From Marsupella aquatica (taxonomy: Eukaryota; Plantae; Marchantiophyta), in assembly GCA_973895155.1 (NCBI GenBank), contig OZ316893.1:14662645-14726644 (forward strand): a DNA stretch of 64,000 nt, in the 5' to 3' direction. Made by a program: the position numbers and the translations under genes. Below, piece by piece: positions 1 to 44,319 of the stretch. Below the pieces are notes generated by a model. The model saw nothing but the letters and a program-made list of their open reading frames with translations. It was not told where the DNA came from and did no database searches. Numbering within the stretch: position 1 is the stretch's first letter; each line of letters opens with the position of its first letter.

Positions 1-3000
1 GAGTTGTTGACCTTCCTGCTCCGAAATGTGTTACCAGATGGTAATTCAATTCCAAAAAATATGTACGAGGCTAGGAAATTGATGTCTAACCTTGGGCTGA
101 ACTATGTGTCTATTGACGCATGCCCTGATGGGTGTGTTCTCTTTCGCAAAGAGCATGCAGATAAATTGACATGCCCTCATTGTGGTAAGCACAGGTACAA
201 GAATGTAGGGAAATGTACACACCCTGCCAAGGTTCTTCGTCATTTTCCTCTCATTCCTAGACTACAACGTCTGTTTAGATGCCCTGCCATTTCCAAGCTG
301 ATGACATGGACTCCTGATAACAAGAGCAGTGATGGCCTGCAGCGTCACATTGGAGATTCCAACCATTGGAAATTTGTTGATGAGAGGTGGCCACAGTTTG
401 CTACAGAGAAGCGGAACTTTCGATTTGGTCTATCACTGGATGGAGTAAACCCATTTGGAGACAAAAACAACCGTTATTCATGTTGGCCGGTTACGCTGCT
501 AAATTACAACCTTCCCCCATGGATGACTACAAAGAGGTTTTTTGTCATGATGGTGCTGTTAATCCCTGGACCAGCTTCTGTGACCGAGCAATTCATAGAT
601 ATCATGTTGGCTCCAGCAGTGGAAGAGTGGAAGACTTTGTGGATAGAAGGGGTGTTAACCCATGATGTTCTGAAGGGGCTTCTTCGACCCAGCCCCTTTA
701 GACTGCATGCAATTTGTTTGCTGGATATAGCAGATTACCCAGGCCATGGCATCATATCTGGACGAGTGACAAAGGGCTATGTGGGGTGCACACCATGTGG
801 GAAAAATGTGACAAGTGAGTGGTCGCATGCCCTGCACAGTATGAAATTTCAGGGGCATAGAAGGTATCTGCCTGTTGATCATCCTTACAGGCACACACGG
901 TCTCAAATTGCACACTTCAACAACAAAACAGAGCTTCGTGGCCCACCACAGAGGGTCACCAGAGAGCAAGTCCTGAGGTGGGCAGCCAGGAAGGCTGATT
1001 GGGACAAGAGAAGTGCCACTGATCGAGAACCTGAGGATCCAGTGGTGAAACATGGTGTGAAAAGACAGACCTTGATGGACTTGGAGTTGGAGTACTGGAG
1101 GGTAATGTACTTAGCCTCCAGCCCCTGTATGATTGCAATTTTAGATTGGAGCAATGGTGGATTGATGTTGGTTACAATCCTCCTATGTGGTTAATTAGTG
1201 TTTCTGTTGTTGAATTCTTTGCTTTGTGGAGTGCAGGAATTCGAGCCCAGCAAACACAATGTGGACGTCATGCACATTGAGAAAAATATTTGTGAGAGCT
1301 TGCTGAAGTTCTTGTCGGGTGAGAAAGATACAGGAGCAGTTCGAGCTGATATGCAATAGAAGGGGATTCGCCCTCACCTTTGGTTGAAGCCCCATGCAAG
1401 CAATCCCAATGTACTTCTCAAGTTCCAAGCTCCCTATGTGTGCACACAGGATGAATGGAAGACATTCTTGTATAGATTGAGCTGTCTGAAAGTGCCCTCT
1501 GGCTATGCTGGTGCCTTCAAGAAGCATATTACAAAGAATAAACGTGGCAGTATGAAAACACATGACTACCATGTGTTGATGCAGCACATTCTGCCCCTAT
1601 GCCTCAGAGGTCTCATGCAGAAACCAGTCCGTAATGTCATTCTTCGACTGTGCAATGTATTTCGCCGTATATGTGTGAAAGTGTGGGATCCCCAAGGATT
1701 GGAGCAGTTGAAGCAGGATGCTGCTTATGTCCTCTGTGACTTGGAGATATACTTCCCCCCTGCTTTCTTTGATGTTATGACTCATCTCCTAATCCATGTG
1801 GTAGAAGAGCTAGGGCAGTATGGGCCAGTCAGTACCAGATGGATGTACCCTATGGAGCGATACATGAAGTTGTTGAAAGGTCATGTGAGAACATACTACA
1901 GGCCAGAGGCTTCCATGGCATTGGGGTACATTAAGGATGAGATGTTGGGATTCCTAACAGAGTACATGGCTGGGTCTGGTGAAGCTATGACAAGAGTTTG
2001 GAAATCTGGTGAAGATGATGGAGTGAGTGGCGAGGTTGTTGAAGGTGTGGGACGTGCTGTTCAGCTGCCTGTTGCGATTCGAGACAAGGCTCATTCATAT
2101 GTGCTGGCAAACACAGAGCCTATGCAACCATGGTGGAGGTGAGTGATTGAATTGACTTGCCTTTGTTGTGATGCTTCTTGTCTGTTCCAAGGGTGATCTT
2201 AGATTGTCATGTGTTGTTTAGACTAACTATGCCTGTACCTCATATTGCAGGGAATATGATATGCAAAAAGCTGCACACTCTGGGCAGCAGGATCCCTTCC
2301 CACAGTTCGAGCAGTGGATTCGGGTGACAATTCGAGAGCATAGTAGACATCACCCAGATATGGAGAAGGATTTGTATCTTCTATCTGTGCCACCACGATT
2401 GTCTATTCTGACCTACAAACGGATGAGAGCTTATGGAAATCATTATCGAGTGAGGGATGAGCAGGGTGACCATTGTGTATCATATGATTGTGGTTTGATT
2501 TCTGTGTTTGAGCAGAGAACCTCTAAAGAACAGAGGGGGTGGATGAAGATGGGTTACGTGGGGGAGTTGACCGACATTTGGGTGTTGAATTATGGTAACA
2601 CAAGTGTCCCAGTGATATTGATGAAGGGATCATGGGTGAAATCAGAGTGGCAGAGACCAAGGGCCACCATGAAGCGTGATCATGATGGGTTCTTGTTGGC
2701 CAATTTTAGGTCCAGAGTACCAGAATGGTCTGAGCCTTTTGTTTTCCCTAGCCAAGTTGAACAGGCTTTCTTTGCAGATGTGGAGGAGTCACATGGCTGG
2801 AGGGTGGTATGCCATAGCCAAGCACGGAACAGGCGGATGGATGGAAGTAAAGTAGAGTTCAGTTTGGATGACCATGCTGCATTCGAGCATCCTAGTCATG
2901 AGACTGTACTTCCAACTCGGGCAGGGACTGACTACATCCCCTTAACATTGAGAGAGACATATGATGAACCTGGGCAAATGGAATATGATGAGGTTGATGA

Positions 3001-3010
3001 TTTGCAATAG
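1..3010 (+). pseudogene. CACTA TnpD transposase (Transposase_21 + DUF4218 + DUF4216), 5'-partial, with premature stop
   Basis: Motifs DACPDGCVLF, LRHFPLIPRLQRLF, LSLDGVNPF, YNLPPW, DYP, DVMHIEKN, MKTHDYH, RWMYPMERY, EPFVFPSQVEQ. Exons <1-1101, 1237-2138, 2251-3010 with GT-AG introns; in-frame TAG at 1357-1359 (probably CAG>TAG). Confidence 0.92.
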
Positions 3011-3187
3011 GCAACAGCTGGCGATTGGCAAGTATGAGGTTGAGGATGACTACCTGCACAGAGTCACAGAACGGGAATTGTTGCCTGGAATGATGTTTAG
3101 GATAGTTGGATATGCATGAAATTGATTGATACTTTGAATTTAGTGTGCTGATTCTCCCTGTTTGGTTGTGGGTGCTGTGCAGAAGCT

Positions 3188-6100
3188 ATGGGGGAAGAGG
3201 GTGATGACATGGAGACAGACATGGGGCTTGGAGAGTGGGGTGAAGAGGAAAGATTGGATATGGATGGAGACCCAGATGCAGGGGGCTCACAGAAAAATGC
3301 ACCTATGCAAGATGCACAGGGCCCTCATCAAGTCCCAGGTAGGTGGGCAGCTAGAGAGAAATCACATAATCCATACCTTAGAAGGAGCCAGAGTTATTGG
3401 CAAGGGACGCCTGATAATTATGATGATGACTATGATGGAGTAGAAGATGGATGGGATGAATATGAACACCCAGAGCGTGGTAGAGACGGGTACAGAGGGC
3501 AATGGAAAGGTGAGGAGGATGATTGGACAAGTAAGTGCCTTGTGCTAGTGATTTTGTGATGGTAGTAGAGATTTAGCTCAATATGCACTTATCTGATGTG
3601 TAGCTAGGGCAAAGAGTTTATCTTACAGGTCCATGAGTGTGGCATGTACCTGTTGGTATGCAGACTCTGATTGGGACAATCACGAAAACAACAAAGGCCA
3701 TCCACGTTCAGATAGGAGGCAATCATTCACAGGCGGGAGAAACGCCCCTAATTCATCAAGACAAAGCAATAGGACAGGTGGTCCAGAACCATCTATGCGC
3801 CAAGGGAGAGGTAACTTGGTCATTGCAGAATTGCTCTGAAGTCCACTGTATATTTGGCAGCGGGATTTATGATTCATACTTACCTAATGTAAGTGACTGT
3901 AAATGGATCCTGTAAATGTGCAGGGACTCCAGGGAGGTTTGGACAATGCAATCCAGGCCGTGGGGGGAGATCAGGCCGTGGAGGGACCCCAGGCCGTGGG
4001 GGGACACCAGGCCGTGGAGGGACACCTAGTAGCGCTTCAGGGAGTACCAAGGCAGGAGACAGTAACAAATTTGGTAAAGTAGAAGTGAATTCCGAAGGTT
4101 GGATAACTCCCACATGTGATGGTAAGAACCGTTGGCATTCTGACCTAAGAGGAGAAGTATTGCGTTGGTTAGATTTGAGCATTACAGAGTTTAGGAGTCA
4201 GAACAAAGCTGATTGGGCTGCTATCTGCAAGGACATTCTTGAACGGTGGGAGTATGTTGGTAATGATGGTAAGGGCCCAGTTGAAGATTGCATATCAGAT
4301 TATGCAATGAGGATTTTGAAACAAGAGAGGCATAGGTTGAAAAGGATATGGATAGACAATGGTTCTAACAGGAGAATGCCACCACCCCCATCATTGGAAC
4401 TGGATCAATGGACACGGTTAATCAAAGGGTTCATGTCGGAGGCTGGACAGAGCAAGAGTGAACTGATGTCAAATGCTCGAGGCAAAGTGAAACACCTTTC
4501 ACAGGCTGGGAGAGGAAGTTATGCTCCAGTGAAAGAACAATTGGTAAGGCAGTGACATGCCTGATAGTAAGCCTCAAACTTATCATCTTGCTACCATTAT
4601 TACATTTTCATTGACAATCAACACTTGGTTTCATTCATATGTATGTTGATGTGGACTGCAGAAGAAATTGACAGGTGAAGAACCATCAGCACAAGAAGTG
4701 AGAGAGGAGTTCATGAAACAAAGGAGTGAGGTGACAAGTGTAACTTCCAAACAGGTGATTATGTTGTAATTCTGTATGTTCTGTGACTATTTGGCCTTGA
4801 GCATCAGAAAGAAATGTAGTAGGAAGTAAGCAACCAGTTCTTGGGGACAGTTATCTGAGATATGTAAGCTGTGTTATGACAGGGAACTGTTACAACTCTC
4901 ACAGAGATGTGTGAACGGTTGAAGTCATTAGAGTGTGGACTCCCTCAAGTGGAAAGTAAATTGGCTGATCGTTTGGATATTGTGGAGGCATCTGTAGCGA
5001 ACCTTCTTGCATCAGTGGAATCTAATTTCAAGCTTGTGATTGAAAAATTGGGTGGTTCCCAACCAAACAATGAGGGCAACATTGTACAAAGTGTGCCCTT
5101 GTTAACAAAAAAGGGAATTGGCAAATCTGACACAGGTATGGAAATGACACCGGCCCATTGTTCATTGTGTCCTATGTTCAAATGTTAGAAGTAAGTTTTC
5201 ATGAATTGAGTGAATGGTTTGAATGCAGGAAGAGTGGAGGCAGAGAAGGACCCTGTAATCAGTAAGCAGAAGGCAAGAAGGTTGCTGAGACAGGTAACCT
5301 GCTATGATCCAGTACATTACATTTGAAAAGTGCATGGAGTTTTGTGAAGCTTAAGCCGGTTGGAGGTAATCTTTTCTGTAAGAACTGGTTGGATGAACTG
5401 GGATCTGAAGTGACATCATGATTGATGTATCAGGTGATTCAAAGAGCAATAATGAAGAAGATGTGCCCAGTGCCTCAGTGACCATAGCCAAGGAGGTATC
5501 AGGTAAGCTGATGCTTTAAATTCCTCTATATGAATGTTGAGCAATAATTCAGTGGTTAATAGATTCAACGTGAATATTGTGGTGTGTTTATTGATCAACA
5601 GAAGCAGACATGGAGCATATGGCAATGGCAAAGAAGGGGAAGAAGGCTGTTCATAATGGTAAGGAGATAGTGACAACTTTGTGGTTGGTGACATGTACAT
5701 TTAGCACATGTGATGAGTGATTCACTTATGTTGGACATGACACTGAATTGTAGTTGATGCAGAGTTGACAGACTCTCAACCAAGTGGGAGCAGGGTGAAG
5801 CGACGTCGAAACTTGGGTGCAACATTGGATGCAAGTAAGATTGTAGATGCTTCAATTGAAGCAAGTACAATGTTGGCAGATACTGAGATGATGTCGCAGG
5901 GAAATCCTGCTACACAATCAGAAGTGTCAAATATGGATGCAGATTCTTTGAAGAAGAGTGTAGCCAATTCTCGATCACCAGCACAAAACACTCGTGCCAA
6001 AGTCATGACTCGCAACCAAGGTATGAATAATGTCATGTATAAGCCACCCAGGAAAGCCAAGAAAAATAGCCAGGGTAAGGTGGAGGTGATAGCCACAGCA

Positions 6101-6358
6101 GAGCCAGTCCATAATCTTCTATCATGGGAGGATGACTCGCAGGTATGTGTGGGTACAGGCATTTTGCGACCGGATCATGCAAAATTCCATGGCAAAGTGG
6201 TCCCGGATGACCATGTAGTAGTGTTGTTGACTACAGTGATTGTATCTGATTGTAATTTGCCATTTCCGAATAGAGACGATGATCCACCTCAGGAAATAAT
6301 TGCAGATGCAGTAGGATCTCTTGTGCTCTGGCCATCAGAGTGTGTTAGTCTGCAGTGA
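3188..6358 (+). CDS. Multi-exon TnpA-like accessory gene of CACTA-1 (exon structure approximate, intactness uncertain)
   Basis: Acidic N-terminus, GRGGTP repeats, core exon ~3924-4543 (PPPPSLELDQWTRLI...SELMSNARGKVKHLSQAGRGSY, Transposase_24-like), and C-terminal exon with the En/Spm Tnp1-type signature VGTG...KFHGKVVPDDHVVV...LPFP...DAVGSLVLWP; several short GT-AG-bounded exons between them. Confidence 0.72.
3925..4028 (+). repeat. 18-bp coding tandem repeat (CCAGGCCGTGGRGGGACA-like) encoding GRGGTP
   Basis: About 4-5 imperfect copies visible; translation PGRGGRSGRGGTPGRGGTPGRGGTP. Confidence 0.85.
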
Positions 6359-6859
6359 CTGAATGCAAGTGTAGATAGAATCATGTGAATTGTGTCACAT
6401 TTTGACATTGCCTTGGAAAGATCCAAGAAATATCTGTACCAATTTTTCCATTTGGTAAAGAGGATGAAGGAGCCGTTGTGTGTGACATTGATATTTCTGA
6501 ATTTTGTATGTATGAAACAATTGATTGATGTCAAACTATGGCTCTATGGTGATTGTCTATGATACTTGAATCTGTTTTGTATCATTTCAGTATTAGTGTG
6601 TATGGTATAGAGGAATACTTTGTGACCTTCTTTGTAGTCTATGAAGTTTGAATCTGTGAATTCATATTAGTGTACATGGTATAGAAGATGGCTTTCTGAA
6701 ACTATGTATTCTAATGTTAACATGATGAATGGTGAACTTATAGAGTGAGTTCATTCAAGTACACAATAAAACATGAATGCAATATGTTATTTGTGCACAA
6801 GAGTGGGTTCATTCCAAGTAGTATAGTGGGGTCTTCATCACTCATATCCAGTTGACATG

Positions 6860-7185
6860 AAAGACTTATACATACCCCACAAAGTATATTTAAAGACTAC
6901 CCTCCATAACCTTTTTAGTCGTTCCCAACGATTCACCATCTCAGCCCATAAAAGACTGAAAACGACTCACCAAAGCTACCCACACAAAGACTAAAATAGA
7001 CTGAAAATCCAGTCTATTAAACGACTTATAAACCAGTTCTATAAAGGACTCAGTTGATTATAGTAACAAAACATACGACTCGCAGTCCTATAAAGGACTG
7101 GAGTCCTTCCCAGTCGTTTCCAAGTCCTATACGGTACTGAATAGTCGTTTAATGGGGTCTAAATACCCCCCAGTTTCTACTAGTG
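6860..7185. repeat. Subterminal repeats and right TIR of CACTA-1
   Basis: Many direct and inverted AAAGACT/ACGACT/AGTCGT/TATAAAGGACT motifs followed by the terminal TTTCTACTAGTG. Confidence 0.8.
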
Positions 7186-9906
7186 CATACACATAGTTTA
7201 TGTGACTAAAAGCAGCCACTTCTGCCCCTAACTTCATCACTCTCTTGATTGAATCCAATGGATTTACAAGTTTCTTTCCATTGTGAATAAAATCTTGATC
7301 ATGGAGCCCATAAGCATGAGAGGTTGCTCCAACACTGATCATGGAGTGGGTTAGTAACCATCCTTCCCACCTAAGATTTTGTCTAGGGCCTGGAATTTCT
7401 CTCCCATTGTAGTCTTCTATCATTAATTTCCTTCTTCTTGAGTCCCCATCACTAGCATGGCCCAACAAAGGTCCAACAGCCTCCAAGCAATGGGTGGCCC
7501 ACATTGACTGCAATTGAATCCATTGCTCCCTGACATAATCAGCAGTAAATTGACCACATGTACCAGTGCCCATGGCACAGAGACGAGGAAACTTGTCACA
7601 CAAAGGATTTACCATAATGCACCTAGCTTGGTGCCCTACAACATTAGTGTCAAAGGCCTCTGTAATGTTATTGAAACCAGTTTCACCCTCACCCACTTTT
7701 ATTGCCAGGCCAACACCACAAGTATGATTGTCTTTTTTCCCACAAAACCCAATAAGTGTATCATCCTTAGGCTGCCACCTCACTGTCTTTTTCACACAGG
7801 TTTCATCCTCTGCCAGATAACAAGGAATAGGCCCACATATTCCAAGTTGACTCTTCAGGTTTGAGTAAACCTGAGCAATGAACTTGAATTGTGAAGCATG
7901 CATGCCAGCACGGAAGACAAACATGCCACGCTTGTCTCTTTGTAGAGTGTTCAAACTAGGACCCAAACCATTTGTCTGGAGACAGTCTACTACCCGTCTG
8001 CCACCATGTAGAAACAGTGCTTGGCATAGGAGCTTTGTTCCTTTCCTCCATCGGTGGCCTGCCTTGCTTCGATTCAAGTTAGAAGCAACATCTTGAAGCA
8101 TATCCCATAATGCTTGCCTACCTCCAAAAGCCCCTTTCTTGTGTGCTTGAACAATGGAATTACATAATTTCATTATGTCCTTCCTGTTAATTGCCTCCTT
8201 ACATATCTCTTTCAGAGATGGTTCTTTAGCTGTGAGCATAAGCAAACGGTGTTGAAACCTCCTTGCTAGTTTTCTCTCCTTCCTGATAATTCTATGATAT
8301 TTCTTTGCTTGCTCTTGGACCTCCTCAGTTGTAAGGTAATCTATCCGCCTACCTTGACCTGTCCCTCTTTGACCTCTTTTCTCAACTGCAGTTACCTCTC
8401 TGAACACCCGTAATCTAAAGTCTGTTAGACTAGGTATGGTGAAACAATGGTCACAAGTCAACTTTATAAACCCACCACCAAGCCTTGATATTCTGGTACA
8501 CGATTTATGTCTGAAGAGACCTTCAATGACACAAATTTCATCGATCTCCTCACACCACACTTTGGCCTTCACTAGGGGCTCTGAATATCATAGGCAGTCT
8601 TCTTTATGTTGATCTTTAGGATATTCTTGATAGGCCTGGACTGGTTGCCATATACCCACTCACTTTGCCATAGTCCCCAACACAACAAGGAGAGGTCATC
8701 GTTATTACCTTTGCCTTTATCGGACGATGATAGGCCAGAGGCACTGCTAGAGCCCTGTTGACTCTCCTTGACAGATAGAAACCCCTGAATGGTTTTTTGA
8801 TGTTTAGCCCTCTTATCAGCCTGACGTGGTCATCCTGCACAGCCTGAGAGAATAGTAATATTGCTACTCACTCTTTGGCTTTTAGAAACTACATTTAAAT
8901 GATTGACTCCCACACAGTGAGTCTGGAGATTGGCCTCCAGATTCCGTTGTTTGGGTATCATCACCACATGTTCACAGCAGAAAATGCAGAACAGTTTGAA
9001 CTTGTGCAACTCCATTGGCTCTCTATTGATATCACCAACAATTTTGAAAGTTTTCTGTCCAACAGACTGTGAATCATTCACAGATTCCACTATTTGAACA
9101 TGTTGTTCAAGAGTGGCTTTATCACTCAAGATAGATGCTGCAGCTCGACAACTTATCTCTACAGAGTCCAATCTTTGACCTCTGTTTTTGGCAACATTCC
9201 TGGTATGCGTGGGTGTGATCAAATGCTTATTCTTGAAGTTGGTGAAAGCATTAGTAATGCTGGCTCTGTCCATGCTACCTAACTTTGAGGCACCTTCCAC
9301 ACGAACATCACATTCACAACATTCTATCTTCCCACATGCCACATTCTCAATGTCCCATGTGTTCACCTTCCATTGATGATCCTCACATTGAATGAATTTC
9401 ATGTGATCCCTCAATTTCTCCACTTGTGTTTGCGAGACCTTGGGAAGATCTTTTGTTATACATAAAGACTTGAAACTTGCTTGAGGATCAGTCTCTACCT
9501 CTGGGGTTTCAATGTCCACAATAGGTGGACTTTCTATAATTGGCTGGTCTAGTGGTGGACCTGCCATGACAAGGTCATCCACCGACAAGCTAAAAGTGGG
9601 AGAGAGACCATTGGAAGCTTTGCTGTCTAAGAGAGGTTGATCTTCACCTCCATCCTCAAATTCATATTTGGGAATAACAATGATTTTCTTCCTACATTCA
9701 TCTATGATATGGGCTTTTTCCCATTCCACCTCCATTTGACTATTGAGATTCATATCGTAAAATTGAAACTCAAATTTAAAGAGACACAGAGTCTCTAGCT
9801 TCAATCTGGCATCGGCAAATGTGTCATCAATCTTGTAACTAATGGATCCTACAGGTTTAGGATCCACAGACACATTGTCCAATCGAAAAACAGTTGCTGA
9901 GGGCAT
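7186..9906 (-). pseudogene. Zinc-finger + P-element/THAP9-like DDE transposase gene, decayed and truncated by the CACTA-1 insertion
   Basis: ORFs 8830-9906 and 7186-8572 join through TGA 8830-8832 (likely CGA), a frameshift near 8615 and a TGA near 8588. Motifs YLAEDETCVKKTVRWQPKDDTLIGFCG, GHASDGDSRRRKLM and QDFIHNGKKLVN resemble the P-superfamily DE..IK....Y....D...GF, SD(G) and D..H..K..RN blocks; N-terminal CxxC...H...H fingers. Confidence 0.7.
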
Positions 9907-9979
9907 TTAGTCAAGTCTGCAAAAATTTCACAAAAAAAACAATCAACATCATCCTGAAATTCACTACAACATATTTTGC

Positions 9980-10460
9980 CCTTTTGCGAAGCTCATTTGA
10001 GTCCGGACACACGTTTGCGATTCTAGATGCTTCAAACCGTTGATGACTCAATACGCATCGCAATTTGCGATACTTGTGGTATCGCAACTTTGGTCTTCCA
10101 TGCGATTTGCATCGCAAACATTTTGCGAACTTTATTGTATCACAATAGTTTGCAAAACTACAGAGATTACAAAACACATTACGAAGGCTCCGTGACCGCT
10201 CCGAAAGTCCGAAACCATAGTAACATTAATGATGCGAAACAATTAGTATTGGAGGATGTTTGCGAAAAGGTTAGCTTCAAACAATTTGCGATGGGTTTGT
10301 ATGGCAAATGTGCGAAACGATGTGGATGGTAAAGGTGGGATGGTCTGGATATCGCAAAATAGTGAAGCGTATAGTATGGAATAATTGAGAAACGGTTTAA
10401 ATGGCAGAATTGCGATTTGGTTGGGATTTGTTTAGTTTCGCAAACAGTTTGCAAACGTTT
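9980..10460. repeat. TTGCGA/TCGCAA motif cluster A (upstream of P-like gene)
   Basis: About a dozen copies in both orientations, e.g. TTTTGCGAAG, TCGCAATTTGCGATA, TCGCAAACATTTTGCGAAC, TTCGCAAA. Confidence 0.8.
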
Positions 10461-10861
10461 ATGTTAGACTTGTGTGTGCATCTAGGTTAGAGTTTGAATG
10501 GGGGAGGAGGAGGGAGGGAGGTGAAAGGTGAAAGAGGGAGGAAGGGAGTTGGAAGGTGGATGAGGGACGGAGGAAGAAGGGAGTCCAAAGAGGGTTTACT
10601 AAAAATAGGAGAGACTTTAGCGAAGAGGGAGGGAGGAGAAAAAGCTATGGAGTTTTTGGAAGAGGAAGGAGAGTTTGGGTTCAAAGAGGGAGGAGGGATA
10701 AGGGAGGGAGTACCCATGTCACTTATATGCATGACCTCTTTTGAAAGTAGGAGTCCAAAATGAAAATACCTACCACACTAATGGTGTATAAAATATTAAT
10801 TAAGAAACAACATGAACAATCCATGATATAGATTTTTGGTTTAAATATCCATAAGTGTCTC

Positions 10862-13800
10862 TCATACTTGGTCACCTTCAATGTCCTCTACATCTGACAC
10901 AAAAATAGTGTCTAGCTTGTCTGAAACAATAGAACGAGACCGTGGCACATATGTGATGACAAGTGACCACTCTAGGTCTAAGGGGTATGGAACGTAGAAA
11001 CATTGCTCCAAGTGAGATGGGAAAGTAAATGGCTCTGACGTTTGCCAATGGGATGCTTGAAAACTAGTGGCACTTGTCCTCAACCGTGTAAACCCACTCT
11101 CATCTTGGAGTACAGTGCGATTATTACCAACAAGGTTCACTTTGAACCACTTGCACTTGAAGACATACTCCTCAAACTTAGATTGGTTGTCATATGAGAC
11201 CACCAAAATCTCCTCTATCTTCCCATAGTGTGGCACAACATCACGAACAATGTTCCTGTCATGTCGGCTACTCCGGGAGTCCTGACAAAACTGCCCTTGA
11301 ACTCCACAATCAAAAGTACGAGCCCTCTTCTCATCAAGGGAAGAAATCCTGAAATTAACAAGACCCATATATTGTTACTACTACACAAAAAACACTAATC
11401 ATGTTATGAGGAACCTTTCATACCAAAAGAGAAAAACACACTTATCTTAAGTAAAATGATTACTATATCTTAAGTAGTAGTACATGAATATGGAAAACAA
11501 GGTTAGGAACTAGTGAAACCTGAAGTGTCTCCCTTGGGTCCACATGGCCGTCTTGGATGTTACCACTCTCAAAGGGCCATGAACAATGGTCCGAATGTCA
11601 TTTGTCATAGTAGGAAACTGTGAGACATCTCCTCCTTGTGCCAAAATGCCATCCAACTCAACCAACTTTTCCTTCATAAACTCATGCAACTTAGGAAAAA
11701 TCCTTGCCCTTTGACTCATTCTTTTGGCATTGTCATAAAACTCCCTCCATTCATCCATGACATTGCTATTACTCAACATGAATGTATTCAACTGTGTCCA
11801 CTCTGTTGATGTAAGCATGCGTGTTTTTGTTGCTCCTGTTAAACAGTCCTCCTCTTGCCTCTCCTCCATCCAAGTACGTGGTAAAGTCCGATCAATGGTG
11901 GCCAAGATGTTACTACAATAAAACATGCTCTCTGCAGCCAAGTATCCTGTAGCTATGCTTCCCTCCACTCGTGCACGGTTACGTACATAAGCCTTCAAGA
12001 CTGACATGTAACGCTCAAGCCAGTACATACATCGACAATGAACTGGACCAACAATGGCAACCTCCCTCACAAGATGCACAAGTAAATGAACCTGACAATC
12101 AAAGAAGGAAGGAGGGAGGGCCTTCTCCAACTTGCAAACCACCTCAGCAGCCAATACCTCCATTCCAGGAATCTCTTCCACATATATCTCCTTTGAGCAT
12201 ATCCATCTCAACAAACGACCCAATGACCAAATGGCATCTTGCACTTCTTTGGTCCCCAACCCTATAATTGCCACTGGCAATATATGCTGCAATAAGCGGT
12301 GATAGTCATGTGTCTTGAGATACCGTGGCCATTTGTGATTGTCCTCCATCCCAAAAGCTTTCCTCAAATTGGCACCATAGCCTGTAGGAAACCGCATCTC
12401 CCCTATACGATTCCGGAATTCACGTCTTTGGCCAACACTAAGCACCCAAGGAGCAGAAGGACGATGTTCCAAACCTGTGGCAGGATCAACTTGTACCCAT
12501 ACATCTGGATGCATTTCCAACTCTTCACATGCCTCCCTGAAGTTAGTGTCCTTCTCCCCATAAAAATGAGCTATCAACACCTTCCCCACATTTCCCTCTA
12601 TGTGCATGGGGTCTAAAAGATGGCGGATCTTCAACTCTGACCAATAGGGCAAACTGGCTAGTATACTCCACCTCGTCAACCCAGTACCATCAAAGGTGAG
12701 GGGATCATCAGGGTCTGCCACCCTATCAGCTAGTGACTTCCAATGCCCAAAAGTTGTTGGTTCCGGAATTTCCCGCATATCACCAAGGGGCATGTCAAAG
12801 GAGGAAAATAAAAGTGGGTCAGACCTCATCTCATGCCCCATCGGAAGAAACTTTGTATGCCCAATGTAAACAATCTTCCTAAGCCATGGGGACCAAATTG
12901 CCATATCTTGCAATTGTGGACCACAGGTGGAGCAAGCTTTGTACCCCTGAGTTTGCAATCCAGAGACAAAGCCAAACCCTGGTTACACCAAAAATAAAAC
13001 CAGACTAAATGTTAGGGTTGTCACATGACAAACAAGTATATTAAAGAGCATATCAAAGAAGGGTGGCATATGGTCAAAAAGTCATCTTACCAGGATAGTC
13101 ATGCATTGTCCAACAAACTACCCCTCTCAATTTAAATACACGTGGAATGCCTCCTATATTTTTCCTGCCATCGTATGCCCACACTCCACCCCACAGTTTT
13201 TGGAGTTCTCCAATCAATAGTGCCAAATAAGTGTCAAAGTTCTTCACCTTTTTTGGACCTGGAATAATCAAAGACAGCAAGAGGAACCCCTTCTTCATGG
13301 ATAGCCATGGTGGAAGGTTGTAATTCATCACAACCACAGGCCAAACTGATGTAGGTCTTCCCTTGCCTCCAAGGGCATGAGGACTAACCCCATCAGATGC
13401 CAATCCCAACCTCACATGACGAGGATCATGTGCAAAGTCTGGCCATGTTTCCTCAATATGTTTGACTGCAGGAGAGTCAATTGGCAACCGCATAACACCA
13501 GGCTCTGATCGATGAGTCTTATGCCATACCATCAACTCTGCCAAATCAGAACACCTGTACATGTGCAACAATCGAGGAATGATGGGAAACCAACGAACAA
13601 CTTTTCTTGGCACCTTCTTTGTAATCATGTTGGGGTCATACCATGGCTCATGACATTCAGTACACTGTGTCTTCTTCTCATCGGCCCCATGAAATAACAT
13701 GCAATCATTCACACATGCATGAATGATATGATATTCCATGCCAATTGATGAGAGAACACGCTTGGCCTCCTTCCAAGTTCCTGACAACACATTGCCAGAA

Positions 13801-14275
13801 GGTAACATAAGGTCATGGCAAAGTGCAAACATATCAGATAACAAGGCATTGCTTGCCTTGTGTTTGGCCTGTAGATTCATCAACCCCAAGATAGCAGAAA
13901 GACGACTCAAACGAGCACCCTCATAGATAAGAGTTCGGGCATGTTCCTCTGCTTCCTCCCATTGGCGCTGTCCCTCAGGGGTATGTCTTGGTCGTGGATC
14001 ATTGGGGGGCACATGACCTCCTTGATCAGCAGACACCTCAGCATCATCACCAGGGATGTCAACACCAAACCAATCAACCATAAAATCATCCATGGCTCTA
14101 TCTTGGTCATCAATAACCTGTTCATATGTTCTGGGTACATTGCGATCAGGGTTGTTGCTTCCACTGTCACTTGATGAGGAATGTGACTCAGAGCCTTTCC
14201 TTCTTCCGGCATACCCATTTCCCGATATGCTGCTCTCAATCTCCGCGGTAACATATTTTGAGAGGGTCGCACATT
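10862..14275 (-). pseudogene. CACTA-2 TnpD transposase (Transposase_21, DUF4218, DUF4216); probable 1-nt frameshift near 14197
   Basis: Exons ~14275-13091, 12978-11520, 11348-10862 joined by in-phase GT-AG introns; motifs HACVNDCMLF, FPIIPRL, LASDGVSP, YNLPPW, HDYPG, DPMHIEGN, LKTHDYH, MYWLERY, EPFTFPSHLEQCFY. The first coding exon is probably the TAD exon 15569-15336. Confidence 0.88.
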
Positions 14276-14418
14276 CTAAAAACAATGCAAACAATTGAAA
14301 GTTACAAAGCAAATAGTTACAACATGTAGAAGAATATATGGGGGTGTGCAAACATGAAATAATATCGGTACTAGTGTAAATACAAAATGTGGCCAAACGC
14401 CATGTGTATGGTCATTTT

Positions 14419-15569
14419 CTAATCCCACACATAGTGAGTAAACAACTCATCACCTGAGTGAATGGTCCTAGTAGCTACAACCAGACAATGGTCATGATGA
14501 TATGTCTGGCCATAAGGGGCTGGTGGAGGACCCTCAATGAAAACCCACTCACAATTTTGCCTACGCTTGGGGCGAGTCCCCACAGTACTGTTTATGAAAC
14601 CAGCTATATTCCCAATTCGTATGGGGTCCCCATCTATCACCCGCTGCTCACTATACCTCCTAGTGTTTCCATCAAAAGTATCTAACTCCAAGGCATAAGT
14701 CTTCCACTCAGGATGTTGTGCAAGGATCATGTTCCAATGTCTTCTCTTGTAGATGGGTCCACCATAAGGAAACAACGTAGGTCCTTCTCGACCGCGTCCA
14801 CCACTACCACTCTCGGTATCCACAATGATGTCTTCACAAGCAAAAACTCCATAGCCATGTCTATCCCCAAGTGTGGAAGGTTTGATAACCCAACGTCTTC
14901 CCCAAACCTCTACCTCCTCACCATAGGAAAGCTCTTGTGGCAAACCAAGAGTCTGGGGATCCCAGTCCTTGATGATAGGAACACATTTGCCAGTAAACTC
15001 ACAATCACCCCACCTACCGGTAACCACTGCCTTGTACAAATCAGTATCCCCTTGGGGCCGTCTCTTGGAACGCTTTCTCCCTCTTGGGACAACAGGCTCA
15101 CCCCCAACTACCCTAGGACTGGAGGGGGCTGTTGCTAGACCCAAGGCTTGTGAGAATGCATTGCCTATAGCATCTAGAACACCTTGTGATGGGACATAAG
15201 GTGCTGATGCCGCAGGTCTAGGCCTACTAGATACCTATTCCACCCAAACCAAAACAAACAACGAGAGGTGTGAAATTAAAAACCTTCACCATTGCGATGT
15301 GGAAATAGGGTAGAAACTAAGGCGTAAACACTTACCACATGGGATGAGGAAGCCCCTGTTGTATGACGTCCGTAACGTCCATATCTCTCAATATGCTGGG
15401 TGCATATATAGGACTTTTGGGAAACCTGACCCACACATTTGGCACATTGGCAAAGCTGACGGGGTGGACCACGAGGAGGAGGTGCAGTCGTGTGAGGTTG
15501 AGGAGGAGGTGGTATATCTTCATCGGAGGAGGAAGAATCTGTGGTGGAGATCTCAGAAGATGAAGACAT
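14419..15569 (-). CDS. TAD + SET-domain protein (putative lysine methyltransferase), exons 15569-15336 and 15234-14419, 349 aa
   Basis: Exon 1 has CQCAKC...CTQHIERYG (CACTA transposase-associated domain pattern CxCxxC...H...G). A 101-nt phase-0 intron GTAAG...AATAG joins it in frame to an open exon with SET motifs IKPST..HGYGVFA.EDI, PYGG, IDG....GNIAGFINS, NCE, VVATRTIHSGDELFTHY. Confidence 0.85.
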
Positions 15570-15999
15570 TGCCCCTACAAAGATGTATAATTTGCAAGTT
15601 AGGGGTTATTACCAAATAACATCACAATATCAAGCTGGACAAATGTAAGTTCTCAAGTAATGATGACATGAAACCAAACACAAAAGGAACACTAAAAAAT
15701 ACCTTTCTGAGACCCAGGCTCAGCGGTGCCAATTAATAGGTCTTGTGGCTCTAAAATAATGAACCGAATCTGGAAGTATGAGAAAAGCTGCAAGTACACA
15801 AAGCGAACACCTTACATACATGTCCTCTTCATAGATAGTGGGAACCAAAATTTTTAATTACATGAATAAGCCTAACTAGACCCATCTATTTTAGTCCGTA
15901 CCTCCAGATGCCCGGGCTCTCACGATGCATACGCATTAGCTAGTATCAATTCATGCAAAAGTGCCGCACCCTGCAAGTTGTCATAGCTCCTCCTCCTTT

Positions 16000-16470
16000 G
16001 TTAGCATAAAACCCATGGAAAAACCATTAAAACCCAAAAGATCCATAAAACCCATTAAAACCCATAAAACCCATGGTAAAACAACTAAAACATTAATCTC
16101 ATCTAACCTTGCTTTGCCTTTTCCAAACCCTCACCCCCAAACCTCTGACCTATTACAAAAACCTAGACCCTCACTCCCAATCCCCTTCCTCTCTTTTGTT
16201 TTAAACCCTAAACCCTTGCTTGAACCCTAAAAGCCTACAACCATAAATGCAAACCCTGCTTAAACCCAAAATTAAAGACTTAAACCCTAAACCCAAACCC
16301 AACTTTAATCCTAAACCCTTTCCTCACTTATTAATTTTAAACCAAAACCCAACTCTTATCAAAATTAGCCTACACCCACACCATGTATAGCTTAAAAACC
16401 GGAAGGTTTGACTGGTAATCTCGCTTTTAACCCCTAACAAAACCAGCTTCATCCAAGACCCAACCCTAAC
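16000..16470. promoter_or_regulatory. AAACCC/AAACCCTA (telobox-like)-rich divergent promoter region between TAD/SET/TnpD and TnpA genes
   Basis: Numerous AAAACCC and AAACCCTAA motifs between two divergently oriented genes; promoter role is inferred. Confidence 0.4.
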
Positions 16471-16609
16471 AAACGCCGGGATTTGAAACGGCGGAATTTC
16501 TTAATTACACAAAAGGGCATAGTATAACTTACATGGCCTAAACAAAAGGAGGAGGGAAAGAATGTGAAAAAAAATTTTGCCAGGAATTGCCACGATATTG
16601 AGAACTGAC

Positions 16610-16830
16610 CTGCTTCGCAACCTGCTTCAGAATTTGGTCACATTATTTGCGAAGCACAATGTTTCACAACAGCTTCGGAAAAACAGAGCCCAAGAGCGTT
16701 TTTTCGCGTCTCTGCAGCTTTGCGAAGGCTTTGCGAAGCGTGTGGTTTTGCATTGGTTTTGGAAAGTTGAGATACTAGTTGCGAAGCAGGCTGATTCGCA
16801 AATTGCGATGCGGACTGCATCGCAAATGTG
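16610..16830. repeat. TTGCGA/TCGCAA motif cluster B (upstream of TnpA-like gene)
   Basis: TTCGCAA, several TTGCGAAG, TTCGCAAATTGCGAT, TCGCAAA. Confidence 0.8.
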
Positions 16831-16939
16831 TTTTGTCTGGGCATTCGGACCTTCCCGCCGGGTTACGAGGCCCATTCGACGTTTTTTGAAGTGAGGGAGG
16901 GCAGGAGGAGAGCTTGCGCGCGCTTGGTGTTGGATAGCT

Positions 16940-19005
16940 ATGGATTCTAGTGGAGGGCGTGGAGGGGATGGGGCAGGGGCAAGTGGGAGTGGGAGTGGGA
17001 GTGGCAATGGCAATGGAGGGAACAGGAATGAGGAGAGTAATCAATGGACGAATTTGATGGCCGAGCATCTCAATGCCACACAGCTGAGCCATTTGGATTT
17101 GAGTACACTAGCTGGGATTGCTTCTTTGAGTGCAATTCTAGGGCAAGCTTTGCAAACCGGGGTTGCAGCAGGGCAGGCTCAGAGGGAGAAAGAGGCAAAG
17201 GCTGCAGCTGAGGAGAAGGCCAGAGAGAAGAAACGAAAGAAGGAGGAGAGGGCTAAGGCAGGAGTACTCTCTCCTGCAGCCCTCAAAAATAAGAGGAGAA
17301 GGGAGGAACGAGATGAGATTCGAGCACAACGTGAGGCGCAGCGGAAAAAGGAGGAAGAGAGGAAGAAGCTGCCATTGATTGCCTTGGTTGAGGGCATTCC
17401 TACTGAGTTGGCCTACACTGGGGCAAAGAGCACTATCAGGCTTGCTGTGAGGACTAGCTTTGCATGAGGTGTTGAGTGGGGGAAACTAAGCAGAGCAGAG
17501 CAGAGGAAAGTAATGACTCAGGTCAAAGATTCATTCAGAAATGGAGCAGAGATTGATGACCAGTGGCTTGCAGATAGAATTTCGAATTCAATGTCTCAAG
17601 CACGATACCATGATAGGAGGAAGGTGAGGGCCTACCTAGCAAGCTTGCAGGAGTACAGGAACGTGAGGATGCCAGTGCAATTCACAAAGGATGTGTGGAA
17701 CGCGTTCTATAAGGTCGAGGTGCAGCTGAAAGTAGCCAAGGACCTCCAATTCTGGAAGGAGAAGGAGGCCAAGGCACTTCAGGCCGGGAAGTCAGACAAA
17801 GACCTCAAGGCATTGGCTGAGAAGGTCTCTCAGCTGCAGCACATCGTGGATGAAGTGGGGACACCACCCCAGAAGTTCATCCTTGCAGCAAACCGAGTCA
17901 GCAAATGCCCCAAGACCACACACAAGATGGGGCAAGGTGGACTTCCCAGCCTGAAAGCAACCTTCGTGAGTCCTCTCCCCTCCTCCCCTGCTTCTTTTCC
18001 TTTGCCTTCAACTGTTGTTTGCTTGCCTGCAATGCCCCTCGCTGACCTCTGCTTTACCCCTTATGGCCTCCCCTTTCGTTTTAGGTCACCCTGACACATT
18101 GCGTGCCTTAGTCATTTCTCGGATTTTTTTAAAAGCACAGTTTGCGAAACAATTGCGAAGCGGGTTGCCTTGCAATTGTTTCGCAAACTCTATTATAACC
18201 TTTTTCCCGTAAGGTTTGCGAAGCCATTGCGAAGCAATCCGATTCGCAGTCTATTTCACAAACTTAAATATATTTGAATTTGCGAAGGTGGGACTTTCGC
18301 AAAGCTTGTTTCATTTTGAAAAACGTTTAGTGTCGAGTGACAAATGTTTGTTAGGGTAATGGGGTTTTTTTCTGGTTAGGGTACCCTTTTTACCCTTTTT
18401 AGGATTCCTTTTTTGCTTAAGTACCCTTAGTTACTAACCCGGGCCCCTTATGTTTTGGTGTTTCATTTTTTTGTGGTAGTATAAGAGGTACCGCCGCAAG
18501 ATAACAACAAAGGAGATGGAGATAGGGGCAGAGCATGGGGCCAGACATCTCTTTGAGTTGGTTGATGCAGAGTTGGCTAGTGTGAGTGATTTGTAGTACC
18601 CTTTCTAAACCCGCACCCATTCCATTTATAAGGTTTATACATTTTTCCTATTAACCCTAAACCCGAATTAACCTTGTGACATGGAAGCAGGATAAGGAGG
18701 AGCAGGAGGGGAGTGAGGATAGCAGTGAGGAGGATAGCGGCGCTGATGATGGGGACACTACCGGGGCCACCACGAGTGGGTCCAGAGGGGCAGGGAGTGT
18801 TGCCACACCTAGCACACCAGGAGACCAGGAGGATGATGATGAGGATGATGACGATGATGAGGATGAGCCAGATGGGGAGGAGCAACAGGCACCACCACCA
18901 CCGCCACCACCACCACCACCCCCCTCCCATCCAGCTTGTCCCGCCCAAAGCAAGAAGGACAAGGGAAAGAGGCCAGCAAAGAGGAGTAGGCGAGCTCCAT
19001 TCTAG
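16940..19005 (+). pseudogene. TnpA-like accessory gene of CACTA-2; exons ~16940-17965, 18480-18581, 18691-19005; in-frame TGA at 17465
   Basis: ORFs 16940-17467 and 17513-18094 are in the same frame across one TGA (likely CGA); basic coiled-coil, helical core, KTTHKMGQGG (En/Spm Transposase_24-like H..G..G), acidic/Pro-rich last exon; GTGAG donors and TAG/CAG acceptors. Confidence 0.62.
18130..18305. repeat. TTGCGA/TCGCAA motif cluster C (intron of TnpA-like gene)
   Basis: TTTGCGAAACAATTGCGAAG, TTCGCAAAC, TTTGCGAAG, TTGCGAAG, TTCGCAAAG. Confidence 0.8.
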
Positions 19006-19219
19006 AGGATGCAGATGTAGTTCACTCCATATGGCATATGGATTAGTCAAAGGACAGTGTCTTGGTATTTGATACCCCATAGGGTTTTAGAAAACCCTAA
19101 TTTTTGTACATTCAGGGATTTTTGGCATATATAAAGTTTTGCTTTGGTATCTTCATGTGGAGCAATAAGACCCCAACCCAATTATGAACCCAAATATACA
19201 AAACCCAGCCCTCAAACTA

Positions 19220-19792
19220 TCCTTGCGAAACACATGCGAACGCCATACTATCGCAAACTTGCCATACATTGAGTATTGGAACATTGCGATACTTTTGGTT
19301 CCGCAATTGTGCGACACCCTGACTGACGCAGTTATGCGATACCATATGAATGGCAACGGAATTGTCAAGACAACAGCTTCGCAAATAAGTTATGGTTTAG
19401 AGCGCGTCGCAAACCGATAAAGAGTCTGTCGAGATCGCATAAATGTGATTTATGTGCGATAAAATAAGTTTCGCAGTGTGCGAAGGTGTTGCAAAGGGGT
19501 TGCGAAAGTCCGATTGCGAAGCTGTGGGTTTCAAAGAATGCGAAAGGGTTGTGATGCGTAGCGTTTCGCAAACGCTGGAATTTCATAATTTGGTCCTTTG
19601 TTAGTTGCGATGGGACAGGGTTCGCAAAAGGGGTTGGTAGTGTTGTAGTGATTGTTTCATGGGATAGACTTTCCATTGAAAGAGAATATTTTCTATAGAC
19701 ACAGACCTAAAGAGAACCCAATGATTTGAAGACCATATTCACAGGACCAATCCCAAGAGAGCCTTGCCCCATCCCGGCCATTTCTCCTAGTG
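19220..19792. repeat. Subterminal TTGCGA/TCGCAA cluster D and TIR of CACTA-2
   Basis: Dense motif copies in both orientations at 19220-19630, then terminal TTTCTCCTAGTG. Confidence 0.85.
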
Positions 19793-24446: not shown

Positions 24447-24870
24447 CTTCCAAGAAGGTGCCAACATCCCCAACATCATGTTCAAACACTCCCCATCATC
24501 AGTTCAAACACTCCCTCGATCTATAGCTCAATACCAATAAAACAAATCTCAGCCGTCTAATAAATTCTCCAAAAGTGTACTTATTATAGGCACGTATTGA
24601 GGCACATATTAAACCATGTCCACTCTACAATATCTAGACATGTGTAGCAATCCGGCACTGATGTGTGGCAAGCCCATATTAGGTACCCTTGCAAAATGCG
24701 ACTTGAGATATTTTTTTAATAACCCCTACATTCATTATAATCAAAAGCATCATTAAATAGGGGCTTCTTAGTTTGTAAACAATTATAACAATTAGTCAAA
24801 AATGGGATTAAAAAACCCCTTGAGATGTTCGCACGAGGGGTCCCGTATTAGTTAAGCTAAGGGCCCAGGG

Positions 24871-25890
24871 TGCAGGGTATTGGTGGCCCACAATGCACAA
24901 GGACACCTATAATTTTATTAAATCATGTGATCCGTGCCAGAGAGTAGGGAAACCCACTGCATCTTCTAAGTGGCCCCTAACTCCCATTCTTCCCTTGGCA
25001 CCTTTTGAAAAGTGGGGTATAGACTTCATTGGCCCCATTTCCCCAGCTGCTCGTCGGAGTCGTAGTAAGTATATCATTCTTGCAACTGATTATGCCACCA
25101 AGTGGGTGGAGGCTAAAGCAACCAGGAAGAATGATGCGAACACTGTTGCGGCATTTCTATTTGAGCATATTATCACTCGCTTTGGCTGTCCCCTAGAACT
25201 GGTGAGTGACCGTGGCCTGCACTTCCTAAATTCCACTATTGAGTTGATCACGGATTTATACCTCATTAAGCACCGCAAGACTACTCCATATAATCCACGG
25301 GCGAATGGCTTGACCGAACGAGCTAATGGGATTATGGGAAAGATCTTAAATAAAATGGTGGCATCTCACAAGACTGACTGGGATGTAAAATTGCATTATG
25401 GGCTTTGGGCTTACCGTACTGCCAAAAAGATTACAACCCTTCGAACCCCATTTTATTTAACTTATGGGGTTGATAGTATTATCCCTATTGAGTTTTCCAT
25501 TCCTACTGAGAGATTACTTATTCCTGAGAGATTCACTCCTGAAGCAAGTCTAGAGAGTCGGTTTGTTGATATTACTAAATTAGAAGAACATCGAATTTTA
25601 GCTTTAAAACATACTGCTGTAGTACAAGAACAACGGAAACACTCTTATGATAAAAAGCTTAAACATGTTAAGTTAGCTGATAATGATTTAGTGTTAGTTT
25701 TTGATTCACGCTACATGCTTTTTCCGGGTAAATTACATACCCATTGGATAGGCCCTTCTAGAATTGAGAAATAATGGCCCAATGGTTTCGTATCCTTAAC
25801 CACTTTAGATGGATACCCCTTAGATACTAGAATTAATGGCTTTAGATTAAAGCAATATCACTTGTCTTCCACTCATGAGGACATGTCGTA
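24871..25890 (+). pseudogene. Ty3/Gypsy integrase (3' part of pol)
   Basis: GYWWPTMHKD...CDPCQR zinc-finger end, FEKWGIDFIGP, ATDYATKWVEA, VSDRGLHF, YNPRANGLTERAN, TPFYLTYG, GKLHTHWIGP; stop at 25772-25774; 5' end cut at a TIR-like GGGCCCAGGG. Confidence 0.93.
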
Positions 25891-31595: not shown

Positions 31596-32557
31596 TTGGT
31601 TACTTTTGTGTTCTTACGGCTTACGACAGGAATCCCATGTCAAGTTGTTGGACTTGGATCTGTAAGATTTCAGATGTTTGATGGTGCTATGAGAACGTTG
31701 AGAAATATGAGACATATTCCCACCATGATGAAATTTTTTATTTCACTTGGAGTTTTAGAAGCAAATGGCCATCAATGGAGTTCTGCTAATGGTGTTCTTC
31801 AGGTTTCTTTAGGTATTCCCTTAACTTCACATTTCAAGTAATCATCGGCTTTCTCTCCTATGGATGTTGTGGAGAAAGGTCTGATGGCTAAGATTCCTTA
31901 TGAGAAGACAGTAGGCAGTCTGATGTATTTGATAACTTGTACTAGGCCTGACTTGGCCCTAGCAATGGGCAAGGTTAGTAGATTCATGTCAAATCCAGGG
32001 AAGGTACATTGGGAAGCTGTGAAATGGATTCTCAGGTATCTCAAGGGTACACAGGACTATGGATTACTATTTGATAACAGATCAGATAGAACGTTAGTTG
32101 GCTATGTAGATTCTGACTATGGAGGCTGTCTGGATACAAGGAGGTCTACAACTGGTTTGTTTTTACTCTTGGAGGAGGATGTATCAGTTGGAAATTTACC
32201 TTGCAAAAGTGTATATCTCAGTCTACTACAGAAGCAGAGTAGGTTGCAGCAGCAAAAGCAGCAAAGGAAGCAATTTGGTTGGATAAGTTGATCGCGGAGA
32301 TGGATTTAGAGCATGGCAAAATGACTCTAAACTGTGATAGTCAGAGTGCTCTTCACTTGGCTGCTAACCAGGTGATGGATAGCAGGGTGAAGCACATTGA
32401 TATCAGATACCATTTTATCAGGCAAACAGTGTCTGATAAAACTTTTGAGCTAGTCAAGATTGATGGAAAGCTCAATCCCGCTGATGCCTTTACCAAAGTG
32501 ATTCCTTTGGAGAGTTTCTCAAGACACCTTGCTACTTTGCAGGTTTTGCAGTTGTAG
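31596..32557 (+). pseudogene. Ty1/Copia pol relic with large internal deletion (protease-region fragment joined to RT C-terminus and RNase H)
   Basis: PCQVVGLGSVRFQMFDG...LRNMRHIP...FISLGVLE, then IPYEKTVGSLMYLITCTRPDLA...HWEAVKWILRYLKGT, GYVDSDY, CDSQSALHLAAN...RVKHIDIRYHFIR; frameshift near 32160. Confidence 0.92.
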
Positions 32558-34865: not shown

Positions 34866-35524
34866 TTCCGAATTTGAGGCTACTTTGCTGGAGCATTGGT
34901 ACTTCAATTGAAACGACAGCAGCTGCGGCAGCAACTGTCACGATGGGCGGAAGATCGGCACCGAGGGCCGCCGCGTTGGTTTGGGGATGGTGGCGATGCG
35001 ATGGAGGAAGGTGCTGGAAGTGTACAGCCGGAATGCCCGGAGGGGCGAGGGGTCTGTGGTGATGCGGCAATCTGTCATGTCAATTGTGATGGAGCTCATG
35101 AGTAATCGTTGCAGGAGGATTGGTGTCGGAGATGGTGACATTGATGTGATTGGCGGACGGCTGAGGGTGGAGAACATGGAGATTAGGGCGTGAGAAGAAC
35201 CTCGGGAACGTCATTTGTTTGGTTAGATTTTTTGTTTGCGAATGTGCTGAATCTACATTCTTGGCTGAATTGATGTGGCGTCTTCTCGGCTCATGAGAGT
35301 TGAGATTGAACCGGAGAGTAGTTGAGAGGAAGCAGCTTTTCTACAGGCGATGGTGTTGTACGGTTTGAGAGGTTTTTAGAATTGAACTGTGCTTCGAGGC
35401 TGAAGAGATTCAAAGGGGCAAGGGGCAAACTTCTGGGGAAGCCATTGAGCCGGAATGAATTTTAGGGTCCATCACCGGAAATGGAGGAGGGGGTGACTTT
35501 GTGCGGCATGAGACTCCGTTGCGA

Positions 35525-43937: not shown

Positions 43938-44319
43938 CACTGTTCACCTTAATTAGTGTGACTAACACTAATTCGAGAGCGCCCATTTTCAGGGTCTACT
44001 CGTGAATTAGTGTTAGTCACACTAATTTTGTGCTAACATTATATTCGCGCACATGAATTAGTGTTACTATGGTCTTAAAAGTGGCAAAATACAAAGGAAA
44101 AAACTATTTTAAAAAATCCACAACAATTAGTGTTACTTTGGACTAGAGATCATCCGTTTTTTACAAGCAATTTAAACTAAACTGAAAAAAATTCATTTTG
44201 AAAACCGATAAAAATTAGTGTTACTTGGACTCAAAATCATTTTTACCAAAATTAGTGTTAGTAACACTAATTTTGTACTAACACTAATTCTTGCATAACA
44301 CTAATTACGGTGAACAGTG
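43938..44319. mobile_element. Tc1/mariner-type MITE, TA TSD
   Basis: TA|CACTGTTCACCTTAATTAGTGT ... ACACTAATTACGGTGAACAGTG|TA; many internal AATTAGTGTTA/TAACACTAATT repeats. Confidence 0.88.

Follow-up and report, generated by a model that had tools for sequence, protein, structure and literature searches.

A stretch of 64,000 nucleotides of Marsupella aquatica DNA (contig OZ316893.1, positions 14,662,645 to 14,726,644; hereafter the window) carries what we read as a decayed copy of a CACTA transposon family with a SET exon in the first intron of its transposase gene. One transcript would encode two proteins: the transposase, and a predicted lysine methyltransferase that marks chromatin for the element's own activity. 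We give this reading a probability of about 50%. By alternative splicing, the transcript would yield either the transposase (TnpD) or a zinc-finger-SET isoform. A TnpA-type second protein on arrays of 5′-TTGCGA would keep the ends and promoter regions of the element unmethylated, and the SET protein would mark chromatin so as to favour the element's own activity.

The element spans 9962-19650 (9689 bp) and has CACTAC inverted ends. When all pairs of CACT(A/G) and (T/C)AGTG in the window were scanned, 9962/19650 was the single pair enclosing TnpD that combined a 10-bp inverted repeat with identical 3-bp duplications. Both ends hold a further 12-mer with the 5′-TTGCGA motif at nearly equal offset. 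One of the 27 related metagenome loci that we used for comparison, L007, has an end with the same CACTACAAC start and the same motif array inside.

9959-9961, unstranded: left target-site duplication ATT, identical to 19651-19653
9962-9971, plus strand: left terminal inverted repeat CACTACAACA, perfect 10-bp inverse of 19641-19650
19641-19653, minus strand: right terminal inverted repeat (19641-19650) and ATT duplication (19651-19653)

With its CACTA ends, 3-bp duplication, TnpD and subterminal short repeats, the element is a member of CACTA/EnSpm. It has none of the features that define HarbingerS or MuDR elements, namely a Harbinger or Mutator transposase and the corresponding ends. An initial annotation of this DNA had drawn the element from 7186 to 19792, with a CACTA terminal inverted repeat at 19792. 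That span shows neither a paired repeat nor a duplication, and the hexamer at its right end (CTAGTG, 19787-19792) has no partner and no adjacent motif.

The transposase gene is on the minus strand.

15336-15569, minus strand: shared first coding exon, 78 codons, with a CxCxxC...H zinc-finger-like (TAD-like) motif and a phase-0 donor
14419-15234, minus strand: SET exon, 271 codons and its own stop, with a phase-0 acceptor, within the intron that separates the TAD-like exon from TnpD
13091-14275, minus strand: first own exon of TnpD (Transposase_21), with a phase-0 acceptor; a 1-nt deletion in the linker at ~14110-14215 shifts the frame
11520-12978, minus strand: TnpD exon (end of Transposase_21, DUF4218), from Pfam, splice sites read from the sequence
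10862-11348, minus strand: last TnpD exon (DUF4216), from Pfam, splice sites read from the sequence

The SET exon scored 27.3 bits against Pfam SET (cut-off 22.4), and Transposase_21, DUF4218 and DUF4216 were all detected in TnpD above the Pfam cut-off. The first coding exon did not match Pfam PF13963; the TAD-like label was given by eye, and the Cys/His motif is kept in 12 of 135 homologue predictions. Joined to the SET exon, it encodes a predicted open protein of 349 amino acids. The first-exon donor, the two acceptors (SET and TnpD) and the SET stop are conserved in related loci. In Calypogeia fissa and Sphagnum, independent gene predictions gave the same spliced zinc-finger-SET product. 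Alternative splicing is likely because the one upstream exon fits both the SET and TnpD exons in phase. Judged from these splice signals, the shared zinc-finger exon is probably spliced either to the SET exon, where the 349-amino-acid protein stops, or past it to TnpD. We rejected an in-frame fusion of SET to TnpD as the usual form because the stop of the SET exon is kept in relatives and has no donor ahead of it; the fused predictions in databases would be damaged copies or gene-caller products.

As the initial annotation had noticed, the SET frame is open and its neighbours are damaged: stops or frameshifts were located in each of TnpD, the divergent second gene and a P-like gene. In TnpD, the distance from the acceptor to a conserved anchor is 182 nt, as against 183 or 168 nt in all 11 pattern-matching loci.

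Comparison with relatives supports the view that the SET exon is under selection and belongs to the CACTA family as a whole. It had 42 near-length homologues and 97 matches among 1.84 billion representative proteins. All the named homologues, including 30 that were looked up, came from Sphagnum, Calypogeia or Riccia; core identity of the window protein was 85% to Calypogeia and 76% to Sphagnum. The first TnpD exon followed SET in all 15 loci in which the SET end is complete and the sequence continues for at least 250 nt. A TAD-like exon preceded SET in 9 of the 10 loci with at least 288 nt upstream, and the tenth begins inside the intron. In these informative loci, the check proposed earlier, whether SET always sits between TAD and TnpD, came out in favour of the proposal. 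The divergent second gene was present in 3 of 4 loci with at least 2.2 kb. Apart from six truncated loci, considered below, the remaining loci were too short to count.

The ratio of nonsynonymous to synonymous substitution rates (dN/dS), calculated with our own Nei-Gojobori script, was 0.20 for the SET core between the window and L001 (95% confidence interval 0.11-0.30), 0.21 between the window and L003, and 0.24 between L003 and L001. For TnpD it was 0.11-0.14 among the same lineages. The suggestion that SET is under constraint and is not a neutral capture was therefore upheld by the between-lineage values. For the pair of the window and L001, dS of the SET exon (0.8; 14419-15030) was below that of TnpD (1.1-1.6). 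This low dS, together with the 76% core identity between moss and liverwort, may reflect exon exchange, silent-site constraint or horizontal transfer.

In Riccia predictions with 27-46% identity, SET is joined to a zinc finger or to Transposase_21. A tree of 69 of the 135 sequences, drawn within the family alone (no outside SET families) and with partial sequences omitted, placed zinc-finger-linked members on distant branches. The association of SET with these partners is therefore old. Close relatives of the SET exon were looked for in viral contigs and bacterial genomes and were not found there, which, as far as close relatives go, gives a viral or bacterial origin no support. One distant family member in Calypogeia fissa (P0114) has different N-terminal Cys/His fingers and no TAD-like motif; it may represent a further carrier or have been domesticated. 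Two other Calypogeia predictions, P0001 and P0270, come from contigs of equal length, but their accessions lie about 280 apart, and they were not treated as co-located. In locus L013 (110-340), the SET exon is interrupted in its 5′ part by a small insertion that has inverted repeats and a target duplication.

The predicted structure of the SET protein had a predicted local distance difference test (pLDDT) score of 91. A Foldseek search returned 288 matches at E<=0.001, SET domains throughout. The structural matches to SET domains had Z scores of 12.4-11.3 and root-mean-square deviations of 2.3-3.0, the top one reaching Z 12.4 with a deviation of 2.5 over 124 residues. Profile matches to solved structures were weak (best E 2e-4), and a single-sequence search of the PDB found no match. 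We are confident from the model that the exon product has a SET fold. The top Z scores were common to COMPASS, PRC2, SET8, SET7/9, NSD2 and a bacterial effector. Because several SET classes score alike, the substrate or target lysine cannot be read from the fold.

Among 48 aligned homologues, the GxG glycines were kept in 45-46 and the Tyr/Phe of FPYxG in 48. The Asn of the S-adenosylmethionine (SAM) motif was present in 42, with Gln in 5; the motif-III Asn was invariant (48/48), and the Tyr at the catalytic position was found in 43. We assume for GxG, (F/Y)xG, the SAM-site Asn and the ELxxxY residues their usual roles in a SET protein. Pfam scans of the window protein and of full-length homologues detected SET alone, with no N6-adenine methylase. 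From the model and these motifs, it is reasonably probable that the SET protein binds SAM and is active.

5′-TTGCGA occurs 39 times in the element, where 2.4 copies are expected and the maximum in 200 shuffles was 7; the other 54 kb of the window hold 20 copies. The four non-coding clusters of a CpG motif described earlier are real and proved to be 5′-TTGCGA arrays of 12, 8, 7 and 10 copies, each with 0.4-0.5 expected.

9984-10443, unstranded: left subterminal 5′-TTGCGA array, 12 copies (0.5 expected); CpG observed/expected ratio 1.0 outside the exact motif
16615-16825, unstranded: internal array between the divergent genes, 8 copies; at the same place in L004, L007, L011 and L022
18142-18302, unstranded: array of 7 copies within intron 1 of the second gene; at the same place in L004, L007 and L011
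19223-19627, unstranded: right subterminal array, 10 copies; same layout inside the CACTACAAC end of L007

The clusters keep their positions in relatives, and the DNA surrounding them hardly aligns. With the exact motif masked, CpG was undepleted around the arrays (observed/expected 0.6-1.3, versus 0.15-0.31 in the coding parts), a possible footprint of lasting local hypomethylation. The motif core TCGCAAA, with 24 copies in the element, equals the core of the Arabidopsis TnpA-Spm1 target. The main text of a recent preprint (10.64898/2026.08.24.746577) reports that TnpA-Spm1 binds clusters of CCVTCGCAAA and causes local CG demethylation via host glycosylases. Our arrays are therefore best read as likely TnpA-type binding sites, two of them, within 500 bp of the ends, being subterminal repeats. 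They had been taken as evidence for motif-guided recruitment of SET; they need no SET because their TCGCAAA core matches the published Arabidopsis target, and that line of evidence falls away.

The divergent second gene spans 16940-19005 on the plus strand.

16940-17965, plus strand: exon 1, TnpA-like by position; in-frame TGA at 17465-17467, where homologues have Arg
18480-18581, plus strand: exon 2
~18691-19005, plus strand: exon 3, with an acidic and proline-rich tail, from sequence reading and homologue tails

Its product is conserved and all-helical, with a model pLDDT of 54. It is probably a TnpA-type protein that would bind the 5′-TTGCGA arrays, both the terminal ones and those close to the promoters, and would keep them locally unmethylated, like TnpA of Arabidopsis Spm1.

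Several observations weigh against the reading of an active, self-serving SET methyltransferase with a TnpA-type partner. In 46 of the 48 homologues of the SET protein, Ser stands in place of the His usual in the NH(S)C motif, there is no post-SET cysteine cluster or cap, and the chain stops three residues past the catalytic-position Tyr. Because of these three features, the SAM pocket may be incomplete; because the canonical NH(S)C motif and the post-SET cap are missing, the protein falls outside the SET1, SUV39, SET2 and EZ classes. The second gene had no match in Pfam, TnpA profile (tandem helix-turn-helix, Transposase_24) or fold searches. Near-copies of the motif may inflate the CpG observed/expected ratio at the arrays, and the element has just one copy of the full Arabidopsis 10-mer CCVTCGCAAA. 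According to the same preprint text (10.64898/2026.08.24.746577), Arabidopsis TnpA brings about local demethylation on its own and leaves H3K9me in place; SET is thus not needed for that step. Six of the 27 loci are truncated SET pieces without adjoining TAD or TnpD, and the two inspected on their 3′ side continue into unrelated sequence. As 26 of the 27 loci belong to one young family, only three independent DNA lineages were available. Within that family, pooled dN/dS was 0.84 for SET and 0.54-0.55 for TnpD, and stops were as frequent in SET (11 of 4365 codons) as in TnpD (24 of 6036); these high ratios and stops are decay after insertion. The open SET frame in the window is itself weak evidence: by simple arithmetic, with 2 lesions in ~1540 codons of the other two genes, a run of 349 codons stays clean about 6 times in 10.

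If the protein is active, its substrate is perhaps a lysine of the histones on copies of the family itself, to which the shared zinc finger or the TnpA-type protein would bring it; we hold this part tentatively. The fuller scheme is doubtful: an old two-part anti-silencing system of bryophyte CACTA elements, in which a TnpA-type protein on TCGCAA arrays and a recruited zinc-finger-SET isoform would write an activating histone methyl mark on the element's own copies.

Of the other explanations, the best placed, although still unlikely, is an active methyltransferase with a non-histone substrate, such as the element's own transposase, its second protein or a host silencing factor, which would tune stability or activity. 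The first exon common to the SET protein and the transposase is consistent with it, as are the lack of any recognised chromatin-reader, pre-SET or post-SET domain in the Pfam scans and the tie of COMPASS, PRC2, SET8 and SET7/9 within 1 Z unit, which favours no histone class. However, the top structural neighbours are nearly all histone methyltransferases, and a basic stretch in the SET protein, seen by eye, could be a nuclear signal.

The next candidate, again improbable, is a catalytically dead SET domain that serves as a nucleosome or histone-tail binder or as a decoy, for example by steering insertion or by shielding copies from a host methyltransferase. PR-type and inactive SET domains were among the fold neighbours here, and the His-to-Ser change and the missing cap would fit this explanation. 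Against it, conservation across 26-45% identity is strongest at the Gly and Asn that contact SAM and at both tyrosine positions, and a SET effector whose crystal structure was solved with an H3 peptide likewise has no such His in the printed alignment.

It is more unlikely still that SET writes a repressive mark (H3K27 or H3K9 type) for self-restraint or for the silencing of host defence genes. The folds of EZH2, ATXR5, G9a and SUVH score as high as those of COMPASS/MLL, and H3K27me3 is reported in PMC11982613 as a preferred mark of green-plant DNA transposons; the long-term hypomethylated look of the arrays fits activation better. Neutral capture of a host SET fragment (Pack-CACTA) is largely refuted and highly improbable: the ratio of 0.84 and the ordinary stop frequency inside the young family would agree with it, but dN/dS between lineages is 0.20-0.24, SET keeps its place even in elements that are 40% apart, domains that flank SET in host families turned up in none of the 51 homologues scanned, and a near-identical host-type protein was absent from the 97 matches in 1.84 billion proteins.

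The closest known systems to the proposed CACTA element with a spliced SET isoform share only parts of its organization. Arabidopsis Spm1 and Spm3 and maize En/Spm, as described in the main text of the preprint (10.64898/2026.08.24.746577), are CACTA elements with terminal TCGCAAA-core clusters and local CG hypomethylation at the clusters, and they too make accessory proteins via alternative splicing or from separate genes. That main text mentions neither SET nor a methyltransferase, whereas the alternative product of the TnpD gene in the bryophyte element is a SET protein. Unlike Spm, the bryophyte element also has internal motif arrays. The same text states that TnpA-like proteins appear restricted to flowering plants (10.64898/2026.08.24.746577).

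SET genes in transposons are already in print, and the earlier impression that no SET-encoding CACTA had been described was too strong: a SET lineage of the EnSpm superfamily occurs in red algae. The red-algal Plavaka PAG2, as presented in the preprint text (bioRxiv 10.1101/2025.02.11.637652), belongs to the EnSpm/CACTA superfamily, has adjacent repeat arrays and a SET proposed to modulate its own chromatin. It differs in having a separate gene, an N6-adenine methylase-SET fusion and a three-gene cassette, and in its Plavaka lineage (10.1101/2025.02.11.637652); the bryophyte element has a lone SET exon that uses the first exon of a plant-type TnpD. Transposon-encoded SET genes are also listed for HarbingerS and for oomycete (Phytophthora) MuDR (Repbase Reports 2014, as cited in PMC12730594), and DNA transposons with a SET protein include SET-capturing Helitrons (as cited in 10.1101/2025.02.11.637652). 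HarbingerS, MuDR and Helitrons belong to other superfamilies and hosts. VANC of the VANDAL elements is a sequence-specific binder, not a SET enzyme. VANDAL resembles the present element, in the account of PMC5735166, in its short motif arrays in non-coding DNA and in the proposed self-directed relief of silencing. It differs in belonging to the Mutator superfamily, and in the bryophyte element the second gene is the better candidate for motif binding. For a VANC-like effect on methylation, the bryophyte element offers only an indirect sign, the CpG footprint at its arrays. We found no description of a SET exon in a plant TnpD-type CACTA in the literature, although Repbase and the supplements and figures of bioRxiv preprints may hold one.

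As far as the cited texts go, the transposon anti-silencing factors that have been tested, VANC and TnpA, are DNA binders, and the reported transposon SET genes come without a functional test. The present family offers a small (349 amino acids), well-folded candidate enzyme in transformable plants, with TCGCAA arrays as a candidate address and alternative splicing versus the transposase as a candidate switch. The question whether transposons write their own histone marks becomes directly testable. The family also suggests that TnpA-type motif systems reach back to bryophytes. The two-part system, if true, would give land plants their first histone writer that is encoded by a transposon and has a defined address.

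The P-like gene lies to the left of the element.

7186-9906, minus strand: broken P-element-like transposase gene, outside the SET element; stop, frameshift, cut at 7185

Its ATG at 9906 is 56 bp outside the left end of the element. The SET element is inserted into the upstream region of this gene, which is part of another mobile element. The gene had been placed inside the SET element, but 7186-9906 falls outside 9962-19650. As element cargo it was rejected on the boundaries; none of the 27 related loci holds a P-like gene, and few of them reach that far. Homologues are common in liverworts and a fern. Pfam and PDB profile searches with the gene, in which a P/THAP9-type RNase H core was looked for, found no match; the label "P-like" comes solely from Atlas features of a homologue, with TNP-like/THAP9 clusters at 0.91-0.92, and is a lead only. 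About 140 bp (19651-19792) separate the right end of the SET element from the CTAGTG hexamer. With the SET element excised, this segment would be found upstream of the start codon of the P-like gene, ~200 bp away, and it may mark one end of the mobile element to which that gene belongs.

A second, unrelated CACTA fills 1-7185 and has its right end at 7185. This second CACTA carries TnpD on the plus strand and a weak Transposase_24 match (3893-4555), and its left part lies beyond the window. Its right end (7180-7185) has its own subterminal motif, ACGACT/AGGACT, and truncates the P-like gene. A 382-bp element at 43927-44319 has CACTG inverted ends of 11 bp and numerous CACTAAT repeats, and a second copy, 83% identical, lies at 56926-57290; the element is likely a non-autonomous CACTA-like miniature. 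The sole clear host gene seen in the window is of BTB/BACK type (35459-38310; Pfam BACK). Other mobile-element remains are a retrotransposon integrase (24824-25774; Pfam rve), a copia-like piece recognized by eye (31842-32291) and a broken Mutator-like gene with a weak SWIM match (52509-56135).

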